A stretch of 6,782 nt of DNA. Origin: Raphidiopsis brookii D9. GTDB taxonomy: Bacteria > Cyanobacteriota > Cyanobacteriia > Cyanobacteriales > Nostocaceae. Positions within the stretch are counted from its first letter, which is position 1. Each line of letters starts with the position of its first letter. The notes under the pieces are model-generated. The model was not told the DNA's origin, ran no database searches, and saw nothing but the letters and a program-made list of their open reading frames with translations. This document shows, in pieces, positions 1-6,782 of this stretch. The DNA lies in contig ACYB01000039.1 in NCBI GenBank assembly GCA_000175855.1, forward strand, positions 1-6,782, given 5' to 3'. The position numbers and the translations under genes are program-made.

Positions 1-882
1 CTTCTCCCCAACCCTACTTAAAACTATACTTAGAGTCTCTGGTTGAATCCTATCTCTCATTTCCTTGGTGATTTCAAGATTTTCAATGAACTGGGTCAGA
101 ATTTCGCCTGTAACTTTTGAAAAAAGGTTCAGTGCTGAATTTTTGATATCGGTTTTGATTTTCTCAAGCTTGGTGATAACATCATCCATGCCAAACTGAA
201 TAAGCTTATCTTCTTTATCTCCAAAATTTAAACGTTCTAGTTTTTCCTCTTCATAACCTAGATTTTTTAACTCTTCTTCAATCCTTCTATAAGTTGGAAA
301 ATACAAAATAGTATCGCCTATACTTTTTTTAATAGTTTTTATAGTTCTATATAGCCTTAATTTTTTTTGTGTAAGCGGATTATGTTTTGGATTCTCTGGA
401 TCCAGTTCCTTTTCCATCCTACCTGCAAACTCCATCACCTCCAAAATACTCGAGTTAGGAATGCGATATCTTCTACTGACTATCTCTAATCGTCTGCGAA
501 ACGATTCAGGGCTTATATTTGCTTCCCTTCCCAAAATTTCTATTTCTTCAATGGGCAAAAACGGTCTCAATTTTCTTAACAATGTTTTTGATCCGAGTTC
601 ATTTAAGTCTAATAGGTCTAAGTCATCTTTTTTAATTTCAACAGTTTCACCGGATGCGAACTCAAGAATTATAGAACCAAATTCTATTGGCCTAAGTTTG
701 TCAAACTTGCACGAAATAGTGTAATACAATGCATTGAGGATGGTAGTTTTGCCTGCGCCATTTTCTGCAATCAGAATAGTCGCTTCCTTATCAAAGAGAA
801 TTTTAATATCTTTGAATCCAAATAAGCGATTAATTGAAAATGACCTTAGCTGGCTTGAGTTCTTGCGCTCCCCTAGTAGCAT
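1..882 (-). CDS. ABC/SMC/RecF-like P-loop ATPase, N-terminal ~294 aa only (gene continues past the window start)
   Basis: Absent from the supplied track because it has no stop codon in the window. I read it from the reverse strand, which is open from 906 to 1. Translation: (MNPAEGTN)MLLGERKNSSQLRSFSINRLFGFKDIKILFDKEATILIAENGAGKTTILNALYY...DTILYFPTYRRIEEELKNLGYEEEKLERLNFG...SKVTGEILTQFIENLEITKEMRDRIQPETLSIVLSRVGEK. Walker A ENGAGKTT lies at 742-765. The 'INRLFGF...ILF...TILIAENGAGKTT' head is typical of RecF/SbcC/OLD-type ABC ATPases and is followed by a charged helical insertion. ATG at 882 has GAGGG 7 nt upstream. An in-frame ATG at 906 is the alternative start, with TGA 6 codons (18 nt) further upstream. 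Confidence 0.8.
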   Translation of the reverse strand, partial: MLLGERKNSSQLRSFSINRLFGFKDIKILFDKEATILIAENGAGKTTILNALYYTISCKFDKLRPIEFGSIILEFASGETVEIKKDDLDLLDLNELGSKTLLRKLRPFLPIEEIEILGREANISPESFRRRLEIVSRRYRIPNSSILEVMEFAGRMEKELDPENPKHNPLTQKKLRLYRTIKTIKKSIGDTILYFPTYRRIEEELKNLGYEEEKLERLNFGDKEDKLIQFGMDDVITKLEKIKTDIKNSALNLFSKVTGEILTQFIENLEITKEMRDRIQPETLSIVLSRVGEK

Positions 883-913
883 GTTTGTACCCTCAGCAGG
901 ATTCATAAGCCTA

Positions 914-942
914 ATTATAAATCACATTTGGACTGGTGTCAA
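914..942 (-). promoter_or_regulatory. Consensus sigma70-type promoter for the partial ATPase gene
   Basis: The minus strand reads TTGACA (942-937), then exactly 17 nt (936-920), then TATAAT (919-914). The predicted TSS is about 906-908. That makes either a ~25-nt leader to ATG 882 (with the GAGGG SD) or a leaderless start at ATG 906. Confidence 0.65.
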
Positions 943-955
943 GTGAACTTTATTT

Positions 956-975
956 GGTATCATTGAGGTATCATT
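956..975. repeat. Tandem direct repeat GGTATCATT-GA-GGTATCATT (11-bp period) just upstream of the -35 box
   Basis: Plus strand 956-964 and 967-975 are identical 9-mers. The core TATCAT recurs at 1020-1025 and inverted (ATGATA) at 1047-1052. This could be an operator or activator site. AT-rich context weakens significance. Confidence 0.5.
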
Positions 976-1300
976 AAAAAATGAATTCAGTTGTTTGTAT
1001 CTGACTCATTAGGAAAGGTTATCATAATAATAACAAAATCAACTTAATGATAAATTTCATTACTTAACCTGCTAAATGAAGGGGGTATTATTATTAAATG
1101 GGAACGCAAAATTAAAATTAAAGGTAATGCTGTTTATTCGTTTTAGTTTCACCACAGCTTAATTGCCCTGGTGAGGGAAAATATTTGGACACCCGAACAA
1201 ACGCTTTCTCATGTTTTACAAAGCTCAGAATTACCAGAAGCTCTCTGTCAAGATAATCCAGCTTGTTGCACCTTTGCATAAGGTACTTATTTAAGATAAT

Positions 1301-2071
1301 TTAACAAATTAAATTAATAAGAAATTGAGTTAAGTTTTGAATAGCTGGGAATTCAGCTGTTTTATCACTAATCCAGGCATCATCACTGATACTTGTTTGA
1401 TTGGTTTTGCCTGGTTTTAAAACACTTACCACAGTAGCAATTATAGCCTTTTCTTTATCAAAGGGTTTCCATTTTAAAGGAGGTTTATTTCTCTCTTCTT
1501 CGGAAAATTTATCTATATATTCTCTTGCTCTTTGCATATATTCAGGATAAGCCAAATCACCACAATCACAAATTAAAGTATCCAAAACACCTTGTCTATT
1601 ATTATCTGGTAATATGTAAATCCCTAATTTCGGGGAGCTGTCGATAACATTCCCGGTTGAATTGACCTTATTAGGAAAATTAGGGAAATGTTCTCTTAAA
1701 TCATTATGGTATTTTTCTACAATTTTATCAGGTGTCTTTTTATCAGCATCAGCTATGATGCCAAAAGCGAAAAGATATGAACAATCAATATCAGATAATT
1801 TATCACTTAAATTAGTAATTAAATTGCCGCCTTCTCCCGCATATATAGCTACAGAAATGTTATCTTTACATAAGATGGTAGGTATGTTTAATCTGAAATG
1901 TAATTTTCCATTTTTTGCAGGATATACAGGAATAAACTTACGCCAAATTTTATCTATTTTGTCAACCTCATTCGAAGGACAGAAATCTAATAACTTACGC
2001 AAAATCTTAGAAATAAAAGCCTGATCATGATTTCCTTCAACACCAATTAAAACATATTTTTTATTCACCAA
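1301..2071 (-). CDS. Toprim-like (OLD/DUF4435/DUF3226-type) putative nuclease, 256 aa; second gene of the ATPase operon
   Basis: ORF from the track. A strong SD AGGAGG (2081-2076) lies 4 nt before TTG 2071 and 7 nt before GTG 2068, so GTG 2068 is the likelier start. The N-terminus KKYVLIGVEGNHDQAFISKIL carries Glu12. FGIIADADKK carries Asp108 and Asp110 (codons 1742-1750). Next comes LGIYILPDNNRQGVLDTLICDCG. The Glu + DxD spacing and strand-like contexts match the Toprim fold as I know it from OLD nucleases and AriB-like DUF4435 proteins. Family assignment is by eye only. Confidence 0.8.
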   Translation of the reverse strand: MVNKKYVLIGVEGNHDQAFISKILRKLLDFCPSNEVDKIDKIWRKFIPVYPAKNGKLHFRLNIPTILCKDNISVAIYAGEGGNLITNLSDKLSDIDCSYLFAFGIIADADKKTPDKIVEKYHNDLREHFPNFPNKVNSTGNVIDSSPKLGIYILPDNNRQGVLDTLICDCGDLAYPEYMQRAREYIDKFSEEERNKPPLKWKPFDKEKAIIATVVSVLKPGKTNQTSISDDAWISDKTAEFPAIQNLTQFLINLIC

Positions 2072-2129
2072 CGTACCTCCTGACCTAATTCCTGTCTTAA
2101 ACGTCTTAGTCTATAACCATCATGTCTAA

Positions 2130-3248
2130 CTACTCTTGTTTTTCTTCCTTGGGTTCTAAACGGTAAAGCACTAAATCTGAATCTGATTCAGTCACCTCTA
2201 ACAAAGCATCCACAGCTTCTAAACTATGAGTAGTCGCAAATAATTGAACATCCATTTCTGCACACCATTTAACAAGCCATTGAAAATAATTTTGTAAAGC
2301 TTCTGTGTGAATAGTTGAATCTAATTCATCAATTAGTAGAATACCACCTTCTTTAACGCTACTTAATTTTAAAGCTATATGTAACAAACGACGAATACCA
2401 TCGCCAAAACTGCTAAGTGGTACAAGTCCCAGTTTTTTATGTTGAATATATATATACACACTAGATGTGGATACACTGGATGTAGATTGTGGTGGTGATA
2501 AAATTTCTATATCAGAAATATTGCTATCTATTTGCTGCAATAGTCTTACTACATCAGATTTAAAATTTCGGAATCTAGCTTGTGATAATAATCGAATCTG
2601 ATCTGCAGAACGATGAGATGATGATGTCACTGTAGCAGTATTTAAACTCGGTTCTCTAGTTCCTGATGGTTTATATAAATGTAGATATAAACCTTTATTT
2701 TGCCACAGTGGAAAATTTTTAGTAATGGTGGGTGTAGTATCAAATAAACTTACCTGGCCATCTTCTGTAAATAATTCTATTTTCAAGTTCATTCCCTTTC
2801 TAACTCCTGGTATTTCTTCATTTTCTTGAATAAGATCATCCTCCTCTTCATTTTCTTGAATCTGATCATTTTCTGATTTTTTTAACCATATTTCTTCTAT
2901 TACTTCATAGCTTGCTATCAGCTTTTTCACAGAAAATAAACCAGTACTGGAAATAAGAATAATAAGTTCTGGAGATTCTATGGTGGATACAGGATTTTGT
3001 GAAAACAACCATCTTAGTGCATCAATAAGTAAATCACGCGGCAATCTATTCTGTAACTCTCTTTGACACGCCGTGATTAACCATGTTGTAATATTTAACG
3101 GATTGGAATAAATTTGTAGTGCTTCTAAAACACTGGTTTTGCCTGAGTTATTAATACCAACAAGCAAGTTAATACGTCCGAGATCCTTTAGCTCTAAATC
3201 TCGAATTCCTCTAAACTGATGAATTATAACACTATCTAGACTTTTCAT
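2130..3248 (-). CDS. ABC-type AAA ATPase (AAA_15/AAA_21-like), 372 aa; first gene of the operon
   Basis: ORF from the track. N-terminal IIHQFRGIRDLELKDLGRINLLVGINNSGKTSVLEAL contains Walker A at 3135-3158. Other motifs are the signature-like LSSFGDGIRRLL, Walker B ILLIDE (2325-2342) with D-loop LDS, and H-loop FATTHS. About 230 aa are inserted between Walker A and the signature motif, including an acidic low-complexity stretch. Confidence 0.9.
   Translation of the reverse strand: MKSLDSVIIHQFRGIRDLELKDLGRINLLVGINNSGKTSVLEALQIYSNPLNITTWLITACQRELQNRLPRDLLIDALRWLFSQNPVSTIESPELIILISSTGLFSVKKLIASYEVIEEIWLKKSENDQIQENEEEDDLIQENEEIPGVRKGMNLKIELFTEDGQVSLFDTTPTITKNFPLWQNKGLYLHLYKPSGTREPSLNTATVTSSSHRSADQIRLLSQARFRNFKSDVVRLLQQIDSNISDIEILSPPQSTSSVSTSSVYIYIQHKKLGLVPLSSFGDGIRRLLHIALKLSSVKEGGILLIDELDSTIHTEALQNYFQWLVKWCAEMDVQLFATTHSLEAVDALLEVTESDSDLVLYRLEPKEEKQE
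2817..2876. repeat. Imperfect 30-bp tandem duplication inside the ATPase CDS
   Basis: Plus strand 2817-2846 is ttcattttcttgaataagatcatcctcctc and 2847-2876 is ttcattttcttgaatctgatcattttctga. The first 15 nt plus the 'gatcat' are shared. On the coding strand this gives DQIQENEE / EDDLIQENEE. Confidence 0.8.
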
Positions 3249-3472
3249 AGGTTTAACTCACGATAAGATACCATTAGACTGAGAATTTGGCGCTGGCAAA
3301 AAAACAGTGGGAAATTATTTTCATAAATCATATACTAATTCTCATAATTCCTGTAGTTATGTCTAATTAAACACTGCTAAACCCTTGACTTTTTCTTCTT
3401 AGTGTTCAAATATAAAAGCATCATGTTCCATCCATGATTGTAGCCAATAAAAGTAACAACAAGCCCTGATAT

Positions 3473-3498
3473 ATGTCCGCATTCGCGGACATTTTATT
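3473..3498 (+). terminator. Rho-independent-terminator-like hairpin with no upstream plus-strand CDS
   Basis: Perfect 8-bp stem ATGTCCGC (3473-3480) with GCGGACAT (3485-3492) and loop ATTC. It is followed by TTTATT (3493-3498). On the minus strand the same hairpin is followed by ATATCAGGG, with no U-tract, so it reads as a plus-strand terminator. Confidence 0.5.
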
Positions 3499-3603
3499 GA
3501 CCACTTTAATAAAAATAACCTAAATTTAACCCCAATTAGTCAAAGGAAAGATTACAATCGATTTGGACAAGCTCTAACTCTAACAAAGGAGGGACATAAA
3601 AGT

Positions 3604-3744
3604 ATGTCCGACTTGAATCGCGGAATTATGAAGTTTGAGGGTGCAGACTCTCCTAAGCTAGTAATGGTATCTACTGTATTGGTGTTAGGTTCTATAGCAA
3701 TACTCATTATCTGGGCTTTGCGATCAGCATACGCATTAGGCTAA
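3604..3744 (+). CDS. Small (46 aa) single-pass membrane protein, hypothetical
   Basis: Too short for the supplied track. Sequence: ATG 3604 ... TAA 3742-3744, MSDLNRGIMKFEGADSPKLVMVSTVLVLGSIAILIIWALRSAYALG. SD AGGAGG lies at 3587-3592. A polar N-terminus is followed by one hydrophobic stretch of about 20 aa flanked by K and R. A TACAAT -10-like hexamer lies at 3553-3558. I do not recognise the family. Confidence 0.55.
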   Translation: MSDLNRGIMKFEGADSPKLVMVSTVLVLGSIAILIIWALRSAYALG

Positions 3745-3767
3745 GTCCTATCAAAATTTCAATTAAG

Positions 3768-3821
3768 CCTGTAGCTTTCCCATGCTTTTTAGGCACTATC
3801 GCGGATGATGGGAGCTACAGG
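3768..3821. repeat. Imperfect inverted repeat / long-loop hairpin between the small ORF and the PlsY-fusion gene
   Basis: CCTGTAGCtTTCCCA (3768-3782) pairs with TGGGAGCTACAGG (3809-3821): 13 bp with a 2-nt bulge and a 26-nt loop. No U-tract follows, so it is not a canonical terminator. Confidence 0.45.
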
Positions 3822-3857
3822 TACTTACAAAACAATAAATCAATAAATATTCATATA

Positions 3858-5441
3858 ATGTCTCAGCTTTGGGGTTTATTAGTTATTTTAATTACTTGTA
3901 TACTCTTAGGTGCACTGCCAATAATTCCCTGGATAACCCGAATAATCAAGGGTAGCCAATTAGAACAGGTTGGTACTGGTAATCTTAGTGTGGCCGCAGC
4001 ATTTTATCACGGCGGAAGAGTGGTAGGTGTTTTAGCAGTGATCTCGGAAGCTTTGAAGGGAATTGCTGCTGTGTTAATTACTCGCATCTTCTTCCCTCAA
4101 GGATCCTTTTGGGAATTAATTGCTCTTATTGCTCTAGTCATAGGTAGATATACTTTCACCAGGGGTGCAGGAACTACCAATGTGGCCTGGGGATTTTTGC
4201 TCCATGACCCACTGATAGCAGGATCTGTCACCTTGTTCGCAGCTATTGGCTTTCTCCTTCTCCGCTCTAGACAGGTAATCCAATTTGGGGTGCTGATTCT
4301 ATTTCCTCTGCTGGTGGCTTTCCTCCATGGTCAAGACTTCAGTAAAATTATTGCCGCCTTTACTTTGGCTGGTTTAATGGGGTGGATTTATCAACAAATC
4401 CCTGATGACCTGGAATTACCACCCCAGGGAGCACAACTGCCAGTTAAACCAATAATGGAGTATTTAAGTGGTAACAAACCAACTATTATTACCTTAGATG
4501 ATTTCCTAGATCCCGAGGTATTTGGTGTTAAATCCGCTACATTATCACAGATTAAGCATCGGGGTTACTCCGTACCTAAAGGTTGGATTTTAGCTCCTTT
4601 TGACGATCCTAGCCAGTTGATTAATTTCCTCCAACCATCTCCATTGTCACCCCTGGTAGTTCGCTCTTCTGCTATTGGTGAGGACTCCCAACAGGCATCC
4701 GCAGCTGGACAATACACAACGGTACTAAATGTTACTAGCAAGCAAGGCTTAAGTCTGGCGATCGCAGAGGTTAAGGGATCCTACAATAGTGAGAATGCGG
4801 TAAAGTATAGACAGGACTTGGGGGTAAAGGATGTGGGCATGGCTGTACTAATTCAACCTCAGGTACAAAGTGTGTATTCAGGGGTAGCATTTAGTCGTGA
4901 CCCTATTTCGCAACAGGGGGATGCGGTAGTAATTGAAGCTGTGGTAGGATCTCCAGAGCAAGTAGTTTCTGGGAAGGTAACACCCGAACAATATCGTCTG
5001 TTTGTGTTGGGGAAGATAAATTATCTACGGTGCAATTTGAAGGAGAGGGAAAAAATTCCTCAGTCATTAATCAAACAAGTAGCTTATCTAGCCAGAAGGT
5101 TAGAAAACAATTATTATGGCATTCCCCAGGATATAGAGTGGAGTTACGATGGGCAAACCCTGTGGGTTTTGCAAGCTCGACCAATTACTACCCTAGTGCC
5201 CATCTGGACAAGAAAAATAGCTGCTGAGGTGATTCCTGGTGTGATCCGTCCCCTAACTTGGTCGATTAATTTACCTTTAACCTGTGGAGTATGGGGAAAA
5301 CTATTTACCATAGTTTTAGGAGAGCGTGCTTCTGGTCTAGACTTTACTAAAATGGCTACGCTTCACTACTCCAGAGCTTACTTTAATGCTTCCTTGTTGG
5401 GTGAGGTCTTCCTGTCCATGGGGTTACCCCAGAAAGTTTAG
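3858..5441 (+). CDS. PlsY-like membrane domain fused to a PPDK_N-type ATP-grasp (PEP/pyruvate-binding) domain; 5' fragment of a frameshifted ~960-aa gene
   Basis: ORF from the track. Residues ~1-190 are polytopic and hydrophobic. LGALPIIPWITRIIKG...VGTGNLSVAAAFYHGGRVVGVLAVISEALKGIAAV aligns by eye with the PlsY pattern (GSIP...GSGNxGATN...GG...V..D.LKG). Residues ~215-450 read FGVKSATLSQIKHRGYSVPKGW...LVVRSSAIGEDS...AAGQYTTVLNV...MAVLIQPQV...SGVAFSRDP...VIEAVVGSPEQVVSGKVTPEQY...PQDIEWSYDGQTLWVLQARPITT, the pyruvate-phosphate-dikinase/PEP-synthase N-terminal ATP-grasp. It ends at TAG 5439-5441 straight after a frameshift. Confidence 0.9.
   Translation: MSQLWGLLVILITCILLGALPIIPWITRIIKGSQLEQVGTGNLSVAAAFYHGGRVVGVLAVISEALKGIAAVLITRIFFPQGSFWELIALIALVIGRYTFTRGAGTTNVAWGFLLHDPLIAGSVTLFAAIGFLLLRSRQVIQFGVLILFPLLVAFLHGQDFSKIIAAFTLAGLMGWIYQQIPDDLELPPQGAQLPVKPIMEYLSGNKPTIITLDDFLDPEVFGVKSATLSQIKHRGYSVPKGWILAPFDDPSQLINFLQPSPLSPLVVRSSAIGEDSQQASAAGQYTTVLNVTSKQGLSLAIAEVKGSYNSENAVKYRQDLGVKDVGMAVLIQPQVQSVYSGVAFSRDPISQQGDAVVIEAVVGSPEQVVSGKVTPEQYRLFVLGKINYLRCNLKEREKIPQSLIKQVAYLARRLENNYYGIPQDIEWSYDGQTLWVLQARPITTLVPIWTRKIAAEVIPGVIRPLTWSINLPLTCGVWGKLFTIVLGERASGLDFTKMATLHYSRAYFNASLLGEVFLSMGLPQKV
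4758..4765. repeat. HIP1 octamer GCGATCGC
   Basis: Exact GCGATCGC, the cyanobacterial highly iterated palindrome. It lies inside the ATP-grasp coding region. Confidence 0.9.
5427..5441 (+). other. Frameshift junction (apparent 1-nt deletion in a C run) splitting the fusion gene
   Basis: Frame of 3858: ATG GGG TTA CCC CAG AAA GTT TAG (MGLPQKV*). Adding one C at 5427-5430 gives GGG TTA CCC CCA GAA AGT TTA GAG = GLPPESLEFLTRGGKISRPPLTSTFKNLPGLLKLLQREIGLEK..., which runs without a stop into the 5522 ORF. Confidence 0.75.
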
Positions 5442-5472
5442 AGTTTTTAACCAGGGGTGGGAAAATAAGTCG

Positions 5473-5480
5473 CCCCCCCC
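5473..5480. repeat. Poly-C(8) homopolymer inside the coding frame (encodes R-P-P-L)
   Basis: cgCCCCCCCCtt at 5471-5482. This is the longest G/C homopolymer in the window and lies 42 nt downstream of the frameshifted C4 run. Confidence 0.9.
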
Positions 5481-5521
5481 TTACTTCGACTTTCAAGAAT
5501 TTACCAGGATTACTCAAACTA

Positions 5522-6745
5522 TTGCAACGGGAAATTGGTTTAGAAAAGCAGTTTAAATTGGATTACTCCCGACTCTTTCTTCCCGGAATGACACAATTAA
5601 CTAATGAGTCTTTGGGGGAATTATCACCATCTCAACTCTTGAATAGGGTGGACCAAATTCTGGATTTATTGGAAAAGGTTACCTACTATAGTATTTTATC
5701 CCCTTTAAGTGCTGCTATCCGCCAGAAATTATTCCGTGTCCAAGATGAAGAAATTGATCACAGTAATGCTCCTGAAATATCATCATTGCACTCTTTGCAA
5801 CGTCTAGCCCTAGCAGCAAAAAACCTATTACCCAATTTAGAACCTCAAAGAGTTTTTGACCAATTGGCAGAAACCACCTCCGGTCAAAATATTTTAGAAG
5901 AATTCTATGAGGTTTTAGAAGAGTATGGTTATTTAAGTCAAGTAGGAACTGATATTGCTGTGTCTAGGTGGAAGGAACAACCAGACTTATTTAAGCAAAT
6001 GTTCATACAGATCCTAGAAACCCATGAAGTTATCAGTAACCAGGGATCCTCGAAACGCCAACAGGGCAATGTGCAAAATCGTGTCAACTTAAAAGGAACA
6101 GTCACGGAAGTTTATTCTCGACTTCTGGCCGAATTACGCTGGACATTCTTGGCTTTAGAAAAGACTTGGTTAACATCTCATCTATTAACAGCACCAGGAG
6201 ATATCTTCTATTTAAACTTAGGTGAGATTAGACGTTTAATTGCTGATGCAGATCCACAATTGACAGAACAACTGGTAAAATTGTTAGCCAGCAGGCGATC
6301 GCAGTTTGAGCAAGATAGTGAAATCAGCCAAATTCCAGCGGTAGTTTATGGCAACAATCCGCCCTACCCAATGACTAACAGTAAACCAATGAATCTTTCT
6401 GACCGAGTTTTGGTAGGAATTCCAGCCAGTAGGGGACAAGCCATAGGAAAAGTGAAGATAGTGCGCAATTTTCAGGAAGCAGGGGAGATTAATAAACAGA
6501 CAATTCTAGTGGTACCCTATACAGATTCTGGGTGGGCTACCATTTTAGTTCGTGCTGGTGGGGTGATTGCTGAAACTGGTGGCAAACTTTCCCATGGTGC
6601 AATTGTGGCCAGAGAATATGGCATTCCTGCGGTCATGGATATACATGGAGCTACTGATTTATTACGAGATGGTCAAAAAGTACGCATTGATGGCTCCCGG
6701 GGAACCGTAGAAATGGGGAGGTTTCCTGAGTTGGGATCTAATTAA
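5522..6745 (+). CDS. 3' fragment of the same gene: middle domain plus PEP-utilising-enzyme mobile (swivel phospho-His) domain
   Basis: The track ORF starts at TTG 5522, but this frame is already open from 5405. The C-terminus GIPASRGQAIGKVKIV...ILVVPYTDSGWATILVRAGGVIAETGGKLSHGAIVAREYGIPAVMD...DGQKVRIDGSRGTVE is the PEP-utilizers swivel domain. The catalytic-His codon is at 6593-6595. No PEP/pyruvate TIM-barrel domain follows. Confidence 0.85.
   Translation: MQREIGLEKQFKLDYSRLFLPGMTQLTNESLGELSPSQLLNRVDQILDLLEKVTYYSILSPLSAAIRQKLFRVQDEEIDHSNAPEISSLHSLQRLALAAKNLLPNLEPQRVFDQLAETTSGQNILEEFYEVLEEYGYLSQVGTDIAVSRWKEQPDLFKQMFIQILETHEVISNQGSSKRQQGNVQNRVNLKGTVTEVYSRLLAELRWTFLALEKTWLTSHLLTAPGDIFYLNLGEIRRLIADADPQLTEQLVKLLASRRSQFEQDSEISQIPAVVYGNNPPYPMTNSKPMNLSDRVLVGIPASRGQAIGKVKIVRNFQEAGEINKQTILVVPYTDSGWATILVRAGGVIAETGGKLSHGAIVAREYGIPAVMDIHGATDLLRDGQKVRIDGSRGTVEMGRFPELGSN
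6295..6302. repeat. HIP1 octamer GCGATCGC
   Basis: Exact GCGATCGC inside the 3' ORF. I saw no copy anywhere in 1-3850. Confidence 0.9.
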
Positions 6746-6782
6746 CTAACTCCGCTTTTATGTTGTCTCTCCTGACGACGTT

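Follow-up and report, generated by a model that had tools for sequence, protein, structure and literature searches.

The window analysed here is a stretch of 6,782 nucleotides (nt) from the cyanobacterium Raphidiopsis brookii D9 (contig ACYB01000039.1, positions 1 to 6,782). On its minus strand lies a two-gene cassette, an AbiLi-like ATP-binding cassette (ABC)-type ATPase of the AAA_15/AAA_21 kind followed by a small protein with a conserved Glu and a DxD motif, which belongs to the DUF3226 family (Table 1). An earlier note, made from the letters alone, had read the pair as a two-gene operon, which is borne out, and as a candidate undescribed anti-phage module, which is not, because PADLOC already lists it: version 2 assigns both proteins to a named candidate, PDC-M38, so the pair is real yet already catalogued. 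PDC-M38 belongs to a set of 145 'phage defence candidates' that entered PADLOC untested (Payne et al. 2024, bioRxiv 10.1101/2024.01.29.577857).

Table 1. Features of the window, with positions counted from its first letter.
Feature	Position	Strand	Basis
ABC-type ATPase gene (AAA_15/AAA_21; PADLOC PDC-M38A), frameshift-truncated, 372 aa	2130..3248	-	Pfam, PADLOC, motifs
A5 homopolymer on the coding strand, 1 base short relative to relatives; frameshift site	2139..2143	-	alignment to L001-L004
Apparent spacer extended to TGA 2067-2065, which overlaps GTG 2068-2066; ATPase tail in intact relatives	2065..2129	-	
DUF3226 gene (PADLOC PDC-M38B), 255 aa from GTG; putative metal-dependent nuclease effector	1301..2068	-	Pfam, PADLOC, AlphaFold2, Foldseek
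Second ABC ATPase (AriA-like), N-terminal 302 codons, runs off the window	1..906	-	open frame from ATG 906
Perfect sigma-70 consensus TTGACA-17-TATAAT	914..942	-	12/12 match; consensus match only

Both open reading frames (ORFs) and every motif quoted for them were located exactly as described, with ORF1 at 3248..2130 (372 aa) and then ORF2 at 2071..1301 (256 aa from TTG). ORF1 carries the Walker A motif GINNSGKT at residues 31-38 (K37), the signature-like LSSFGDGIRRLL at 278-289, Walker B ILLIDE at 303-308 followed by ELD (through 310), and the H-loop ATTHS at 338-342, as well as an acidic duplication, QIQENEE / LIQENEE, at 129-145. The four ATPase motifs are at least 95% conserved in an alignment of 73 sequences (72 loci and the reference contig L001), and the claim of a complete ABC-type set stands. 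The motifs of ORF2 are VEGNHD (11-16), IIADADKK (105-112) and LPDNNRQGVLDTL (154-166). An AGGAGG lies at 2081-2076, within the 58-nt gap that separates the ORFs (2072-2129). GTG 2068 is a more likely start of ORF2 than TTG 2071, because it is located 7 nt from AGGAGG and because the database protein P0001, which is 99% identical to the intact ORF2, is likewise 255 aa long. These are not chance ORFs, since 375 homologues of ORF2 and 744 cluster representatives were found.

Profile searches place the first gene among ABC ATPases of defence systems. In Pfam, ORF1 matches AAA_21 (1.1e-19, aligned over 1-304 of 304) and AAA_15 (1.2e-17, 3-372 of 374). As these profiles align end to end, the insertion of ~230 aa that had been taken for idiosyncratic is the normal AAA_15/AAA_21 insert. 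In PADLOC, the best match is PDC-M38A (4.6e-67, PDLC04608), ahead of AbiLi (1.4e-37), AriA (7.4e-21) and GajA, with weaker matches to Old and PtuA; the HEC-01A/02A models are matched as well. ORF1 has the features of an ABC ATPase (AAA_15/AAA_21), the conserved C-terminal tail being absent from the window copy.

The loss of this tail is due to a frameshift. In an alignment, the coding strand of the window has A5 at 2139-2143, as opposed to A6 in all four related contigs (L001 to L004, contigs from other samples that are 97-98% identical to the window), and this homopolymer base is the sole indel across both genes. With A6, the ATPase continues to ...KTRVVRHDGYRLRRLRQELGQEVRW and its stop codon, is 394 aa long, and its TGA overlaps the GTG of ORF2 by 4 nt (GTGA). 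The earlier note had described a short ATPase separated from ORF2 by a spacer with a strong Shine-Dalgarno sequence. The 58-nt gap and the AGGAGG are indeed present, but the spacer and the length of 372 aa both arise because one nucleotide is deleted from the A6 run, and that operon geometry is a frameshift artefact or lesion. In intact relatives, 2065..2129 codes for the last ~22 ATPase residues, the AGGAGG included. Since the intact ATPase reads through the apparent spacer, the AGGAGG is coding sequence (Gln-Glu-Val), and within the intact tail it serves as the ribosome-binding site of the next gene. The overlap of the ATPase stop with the DUF3226 start recurs in 72 of 73 cyanobacterial loci, and the lost tail, ...LGxEVRW, is conserved across the 73 homologues. 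The intact 394-aa form covers 1-366 of the 367 positions of the PDC-M38A profile (7.4e-71), as compared to 1-342 for the window ORF. The frameshift thus costs the ATPase 22 conserved residues at its C-terminus and breaks the coupling between the genes.

Every single-base indel that distinguishes the window from L001 falls in a homopolymer. One of them, C4 vs. C5 at about 5427, splits the gene of a PlsY (G3P_acyltransf)-PPDK_N-PEP-utilizers fusion, a single 962-aa ORF in L001, into 3858-5441 and 5522-6745 on the plus strand of the window. A compensating pair of homopolymer indels was also seen in this gene, at 5009 and 5050. The confinement of the indels to homopolymers, together with the split PlsY-PPDK gene, therefore favours a sequencing or assembly error: the -1 frameshift of the ATPase is most likely an assembly error and otherwise a recent inactivating mutation. 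If the frameshift is real, the cassette of this strain could be a decaying pseudogene remnant which has lost its coupling and is non-functional whatever its ancestral role. The frameshift is absent from the four related contigs, the tail that it removes is kept in all 73 homologues, and a related assembly (L086, see below) also contains a frameshifted AriB-like gene, so defence genes of this lineage do decay. Such a remnant nevertheless appears unlikely, if worth keeping in mind, as such a pattern of homopolymer indels is what sequencing or assembly errors typically produce and ORF2 is undamaged, with 99% identity to P0001. In practice, the 394-aa form is the one for cloning, the ATPase of the window being frameshifted.

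The second protein could not be placed confidently in the earlier note among DUF4435, DUF3226 and DUF4276. The Pfam search gives a strong match to DUF3226 (PF11536; 3.9e-33, 115.5 bits vs. a cutoff of 27), which by profile score makes ORF2 an unambiguous member of this family. Its PADLOC matches are to PDC-M38B models only, seven in number, at 1.7e-14 to 6.4e-6. The 375 close homologues are almost all cyanobacterial; those with names are called 'DUF3226 domain-containing protein' or 'hypothetical protein', and one source labels one of them 'arginine deiminase'. The 744 cluster representatives were recovered at E<=1e-3 in a profile search of 1.84 billion. From the family, 150 diverse representatives, down to 27% identity, were taken for comparison: 149 are DUF3226 proteins and 144 match PDC-M38B. 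Near-invariant among the 150 are E11, G12, D15, P63, D107, D109, P154, G160, K207, P219, W232 and F249 (conserved residues are numbered from the GTG start). E11, G12, D15, D107 and D109 are each at least 90% conserved down to 27% identity, and conservation across the family is highest at E11, D15, D107 and D109.

An AlphaFold2 model of ORF2, built from 31 sequences, reached a predicted local distance difference test score (pLDDT) of 83 and a predicted template modelling score (pTM) of 0.83. In a Foldseek search of the PDB, the top match of the model is 2P62, the protein PH0156 of Pyrococcus horikoshii (E 5.8e-5, probability 1.00, template modelling (TM) scores 0.59/0.62). The profile of the 150 members likewise matches 2P62 (5.9e-7), aligning VEG-x2-D and DxD, and PH0156 keeps these acidic motifs as VEGKTDE and DVD. 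Both the score above the gathering threshold and the structural resemblance place ORF2 with DUF3226 and PH0156. The names DUF3226 and PDC-M38 appear in no main text of the searchable literature.

Whether this protein has a Toprim fold, as had been proposed, is a question on which the evidence divides. The catalytic residues of Toprim domains canonically follow strand 1 and strand 3 (PMC12065111). In the AlphaFold2 model, the core of ORF2 is predicted to be beta-alpha-beta-alpha-beta-alpha-beta; E11 follows strand 4-10 (strand 1) and D107-x-D109 ends strand 99-107 (strand 3), which is the Toprim placement of Glu and DxD. The E-x3-D plus DxD pattern also parallels the acidic residues E26/D30/D88/E90 of AriB (PMC11464382), and in a published HHpred table PH0156 is the top match of a lactococcal DUF4435 AriB (PMC11381338 Table 1). 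The weak non-self matches that the 150 relatives give to hidden Markov models (HMMs) are to OLD-like_TOPRIM (two), Toprim (one), HEC-01B (three), mad4/DUF4276 (two) and AbiLii (one), and they are heavily enriched for Toprim-type partner families.

Direct comparisons do not bear it out. When the full model of ORF2 is searched against the PDB with Foldseek, no Toprim structure is returned, the sole convincing match being 2P62, after which small GTPases are ranked at TM 0.2-0.4; published AriB, OLD and GajA structures should be present in that database. A separately re-predicted alpha/beta core of 176 residues, with the C-terminal helical domain removed, likewise finds no Toprim in the PDB, and the full model has neither a viral nor a Toprim match in BFVD. 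With hhalign, the 150-member DUF3226 profile was compared with P2 Old as a lone sequence and with a DUF4435 profile of 34 members; the probability stayed below 1% for both, and local, global and low-mact settings gave the same outcome. As for the DUF4435 homologues, an 85-aa AriB-like fragment used as a query gave a single 67-aa match, and a composite probe recovered DUF4435 proteins. Of the Toprim claim, then, the acidic pattern holds, whereas the fold finds no Toprim relative by Foldseek or hhalign. Because placement and cross-matches speak for it and the Foldseek and hhalign results against it, we consider it reasonable to infer a metal-dependent nuclease of Toprim-like type.

The two genes travel together. 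In practically every one of the 80 cyanobacterial loci with upstream sequence, the ATPase is immediately upstream of the DUF3226 gene; the sole exception among loci with enough flank is the DUF3226 gene at L081:10001-10744, upstream of which no ATPase is recognisable. Distant members keep the pairing, in the order NYN-HsdS-ATPase-DUF3226 in L088 and ATPase-DUF3226 in L091. When 185,579 representative genomes, one per species, were scanned with peptide patterns of the cyanobacterial subfamily, relatives were found in 116, among them Nostoc, Dolichospermum, Aphanizomenon, Planktothrix, Microcystis, Microcoleus, Pseudanabaena and Crocosphaera. The distribution is patchy and the genomic position of the cassette varies. 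An unusual arrangement was seen in Hormoscilla sp. GUM202 (L061:5252-9749), where a single DUF3226 gene is preceded by a tandem array of three ATPase paralogues (73-82% identical), all with the ending ...LGxEVRW; several sensors may share one effector in this array. L060 resembles it, with an array that looks partly degraded.

Downstream of the DUF3226 gene, the window contains the start of an AriA-like ATPase. Its full-length orthologue (L002:3780-5213, 477 aa) matches PADLOC AriA at 1.5e-26 and overlaps the next gene, whose N-terminus is of the DUF4435/AriB type (Pfam 5.5e-8, PADLOC AriB 9e-7). The PDC-M38 pair and the AriA-like gene downstream therefore make up two stacked ATPase-effector pairs, the second of them PARIS-like. 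The AriA-like ATG 906 starts 7 nt after the -10 hexamer of the promoter-like site, a spacing that would leave the mRNA with no leader or almost none. Guanine-cytosine (GC) content is 33% in 1-3857 vs. 43% in the adjacent PlsY-PPDK region (3858-6782), a step consistent with a horizontally acquired islet.

Several smaller features accompany these genes. Between the DUF3226 and AriA-like genes lies a 53-aa ORF (1118-1279, minus strand) with a 55-aa counterpart in L002 and no Pfam match. In the related assembly GCA_002321945.1, the AriB-like DUF4435 gene (L086:13-758) is split by a frameshift into pieces of 67 aa and 181 aa, another broken defence gene or assembly error. Where the ATPase and PlsY-PPDK genes diverge, the 600 nt between them contain a perfect 20-nt palindrome, ATGTCCGCATTCGCGGACAT, at 3473-3492, which on the plus strand is scored as a terminator-like hairpin. 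Upstream of PlsY-PPDK, about 200 nt present in L001:8051-8260 and L002:674-883 are absent from the window at 3821/3822; a repeated mobile element was considered and dropped because the segment is nowhere repeated in the loci compared, L001 and L002 each carrying it at this site alone. Scanning the window for Rfam families and tRNAs gave no matches.

Taken as a whole, the locus is best read, with a probability of roughly 0.6, as a cyanobacterial member of the PDC-M38 cassette in which a sensor ATPase would act with a nuclease effector in defence. A defence role is supported because PDC-M38 cassettes are defined by their embedding in BREX, DISARM and type I restriction-modification (RM) systems, because a PARIS-like pair is adjacent, because GC content is low and because the cassette elsewhere has some RM, toxin-antitoxin, NACHT or GmrSD-like genes as neighbours; the candidates were derived by this guilt-by-embedding approach (Payne et al., 10.1101/2024.01.29.577857). 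The AbiLi-like ATPase, normally of 394 aa, is coupled translationally to the DUF3226 protein of ~255 aa through the GTGA overlap. In the proposed scheme, which is modelled on PARIS, OLD and Gabija, an oligomer of the ATPase may sense an infection cue and regulate the DUF3226 protein, which would be released or activated once a phage cue is sensed. Its cluster of Glu11/Asp15 and Asp107-x-Asp109 probably binds a divalent metal, and the putative nuclease could then cleave nucleic acid (tRNA or DNA), leading to growth arrest or abortive infection. What the sequences themselves show is the tight coupling of the genes, their strict co-occurrence and the conservation of the ATPase motifs and acidic residues; the nuclease activity, its substrate and trigger, and the defence phenotype are inferred.

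A number of observations weigh against this reading, among them the negative Toprim comparisons above and the truncation of the ATPase in this window. PDC-M38 is listed purely as a candidate, and the related HEC-01 (ATPase plus TOPRIM) gave no protection in the assays of Payne et al. (10.1101/2024.01.29.577857). No match to ORF2 was found by tblastn in 72,556 plasmids. In the 80 other loci, the neighbours are mostly housekeeping genes such as leuB, galT, RNase II and a tRNA methyltransferase, aspS adjoins the cassette in about 21 Oscillatoriales loci, and defence models pick up about 10 of the 137 distinct families of neighbours (E<=1e-10). With so many housekeeping neighbours, the pair might belong to DNA maintenance, as a RecF/RecR-like or SMC-like ABC ATPase with a non-catalytic Toprim-like DNA-binding partner in repair or replication. 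RecR is the Toprim-domain partner of the RecF ATPase, and the N-terminus of ORF1 does match RecF, SMC_N and Rad50 profiles. However, the RecF match amounts to 41 bits vs. a cutoff of 172 and is restricted to the Walker A region, while the best profile matches of ORF1 are defence ATPases. The patchy distribution (116 genomes) and variable positions, the low-GC segment, and the embedding of cassettes in RM and BREX systems also argue against such a function, which we consider very improbable.

Other neighbours are of the defence or toxin-antitoxin (TA) type: YoeB, ribbon-helix-helix (RHH) proteins, a type II restriction endonuclease together with a C5 methylase, NACHT proteins, type I S subunits, a GmrSD-like HEC-06 and a type IIG enzyme. 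YoeB and RHH TA genes often adjoin the cassette in Oscillatoriales loci, Pfam labels AAA_21 'putative AbiEii toxin, Type IV TA system', and in PARIS the toxic AriB is sequestered by AriA (PMC11464382). The cassette could by this token be a TA-like addiction module, with a DUF3226 toxin neutralised by the ATPase and serving to stabilise the island more than to sense phage. The DUF3226 gene kept in L081 with no ATPase argues against strong unchecked toxicity, and the plasmid search speaks against an addiction module as well. Such a role also overlaps with abortive-infection defence, and sequence cannot separate the two. On balance, an addiction module seems improbable.

We propose more tentatively, and with the odds somewhat against it, that DUF3226 forms a distinct Toprim-derived nuclease branch which, together with AbiLi-like ATPases, makes up an autonomous abortive-infection system apart from PARIS, AbiL, Gabija and OLD, with its own trigger and target and widely kept in filamentous and in bloom-forming cyanobacteria. 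The trigger and target of an autonomous PDC-M38 may differ from those of the stacked PARIS pair. If validated, the cassette would supply DUF3226 and the orphan structure PH0156 with a function, and would add a further effector type to the theme of ABC ATPase plus nuclease in defence. Since the clade occurs in 116 representative species, including bloom-formers, a validated pair would also bear on cyanophage resistance.

The only solved relative of ORF2, PH0156, comes from structural genomics and has no assigned function. It shares VEG..D and DxD with ORF2, and the ORF2 model superposes on it with a TM of about 0.6; the two differ in that identity is 16% and ORF2 has a low-confidence insert of ~35 residues (28-63).

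Among the named systems, the earlier note had suggested PARIS, AbiL or a split OLD, and ORF2 matches none of DUF4435/AriB, RloB/AbiLii and OLD-like_TOPRIM. PARIS is likewise a split ABC ATPase with a small effector of similar E-x3-D ... DxD/E spacing, and ORF1 matches its AriA models (7e-21). The AriA-like neighbour, however, is about 60 residues longer than the ORF1-type ATPase, which is closer to AbiLi, and ORF2 has no match to DUF4435/AriB at E<=1, DUF4435 belonging to the neighbouring operon; the lack of this effector domain led to rejection of PARIS membership. AbiL of Lactococcus has the same two-gene layout, and AbiLi is the best named match of ORF1 after PDC-M38A (1.4e-37, nearly full length). 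ORF2 does not match RloB/AbiLii, and 1 of the 150 family members is marginal for AbiLii at 0.007; AbiL membership was rejected, the second protein not being RloB/AbiLii-like. With OLD, GajA and HEC-01 the pair shares the theme of an ABC ATPase plus an acidic-cluster nuclease, and ORF1 matches GajA, Old and HEC-01A/02A. In the OLD family, the ATPase is fused to Toprim (PF20469), whereas the genes of the window are separate and have no helicase partner. ORF2 gives no match to OLD-like_TOPRIM PF20469 (2 of 150 relatives do, at 0.007 or weaker), and OLD membership was rejected on the unfused genes and the lack of this match; the hhalign comparison with P2 Old is negative. The broader suggestion of an ATPase-plus-nuclease defence theme fares well, since ORF1 scores on the AbiLi, AriA, GajA and Old models and a PARIS-like pair adjoins. 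In a published tree of AAA15/21 defence ATPases, the partner domains are Toprim-Old, DUF4435, RloB and DUF4276, and DUF3226 is not among them (PMC11464382).

It is PDC-M38 that the pair resembles in both proteins. ORF1 matches the PDC-M38A HMM and ORF2, adjacent and co-oriented, matches PDC-M38B, in the same two-gene, same-strand, ATPase-first layout. Payne et al. assigned the cassettes CAS_00138 and CAS_00155 to PDC-M38, and the ATPase family FAM_00005 is common to CAS_00155 and HEC-01 (10.1101/2024.01.29.577857). A setting like that in which the candidate was discovered is found in L088, where a distant member lies beside a type I RM S subunit. Most cyanobacterial copies, unlike the RM- or BREX-embedded PDC-M38, stand alone among housekeeping genes, and the cyanobacterial clade is a divergent branch, as ORF2 scores weakly (1e-14 to 6e-6) on the seven B models. 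The locus mostly confirms the PDC-M38 catalogue and extends it to cyanobacteria.

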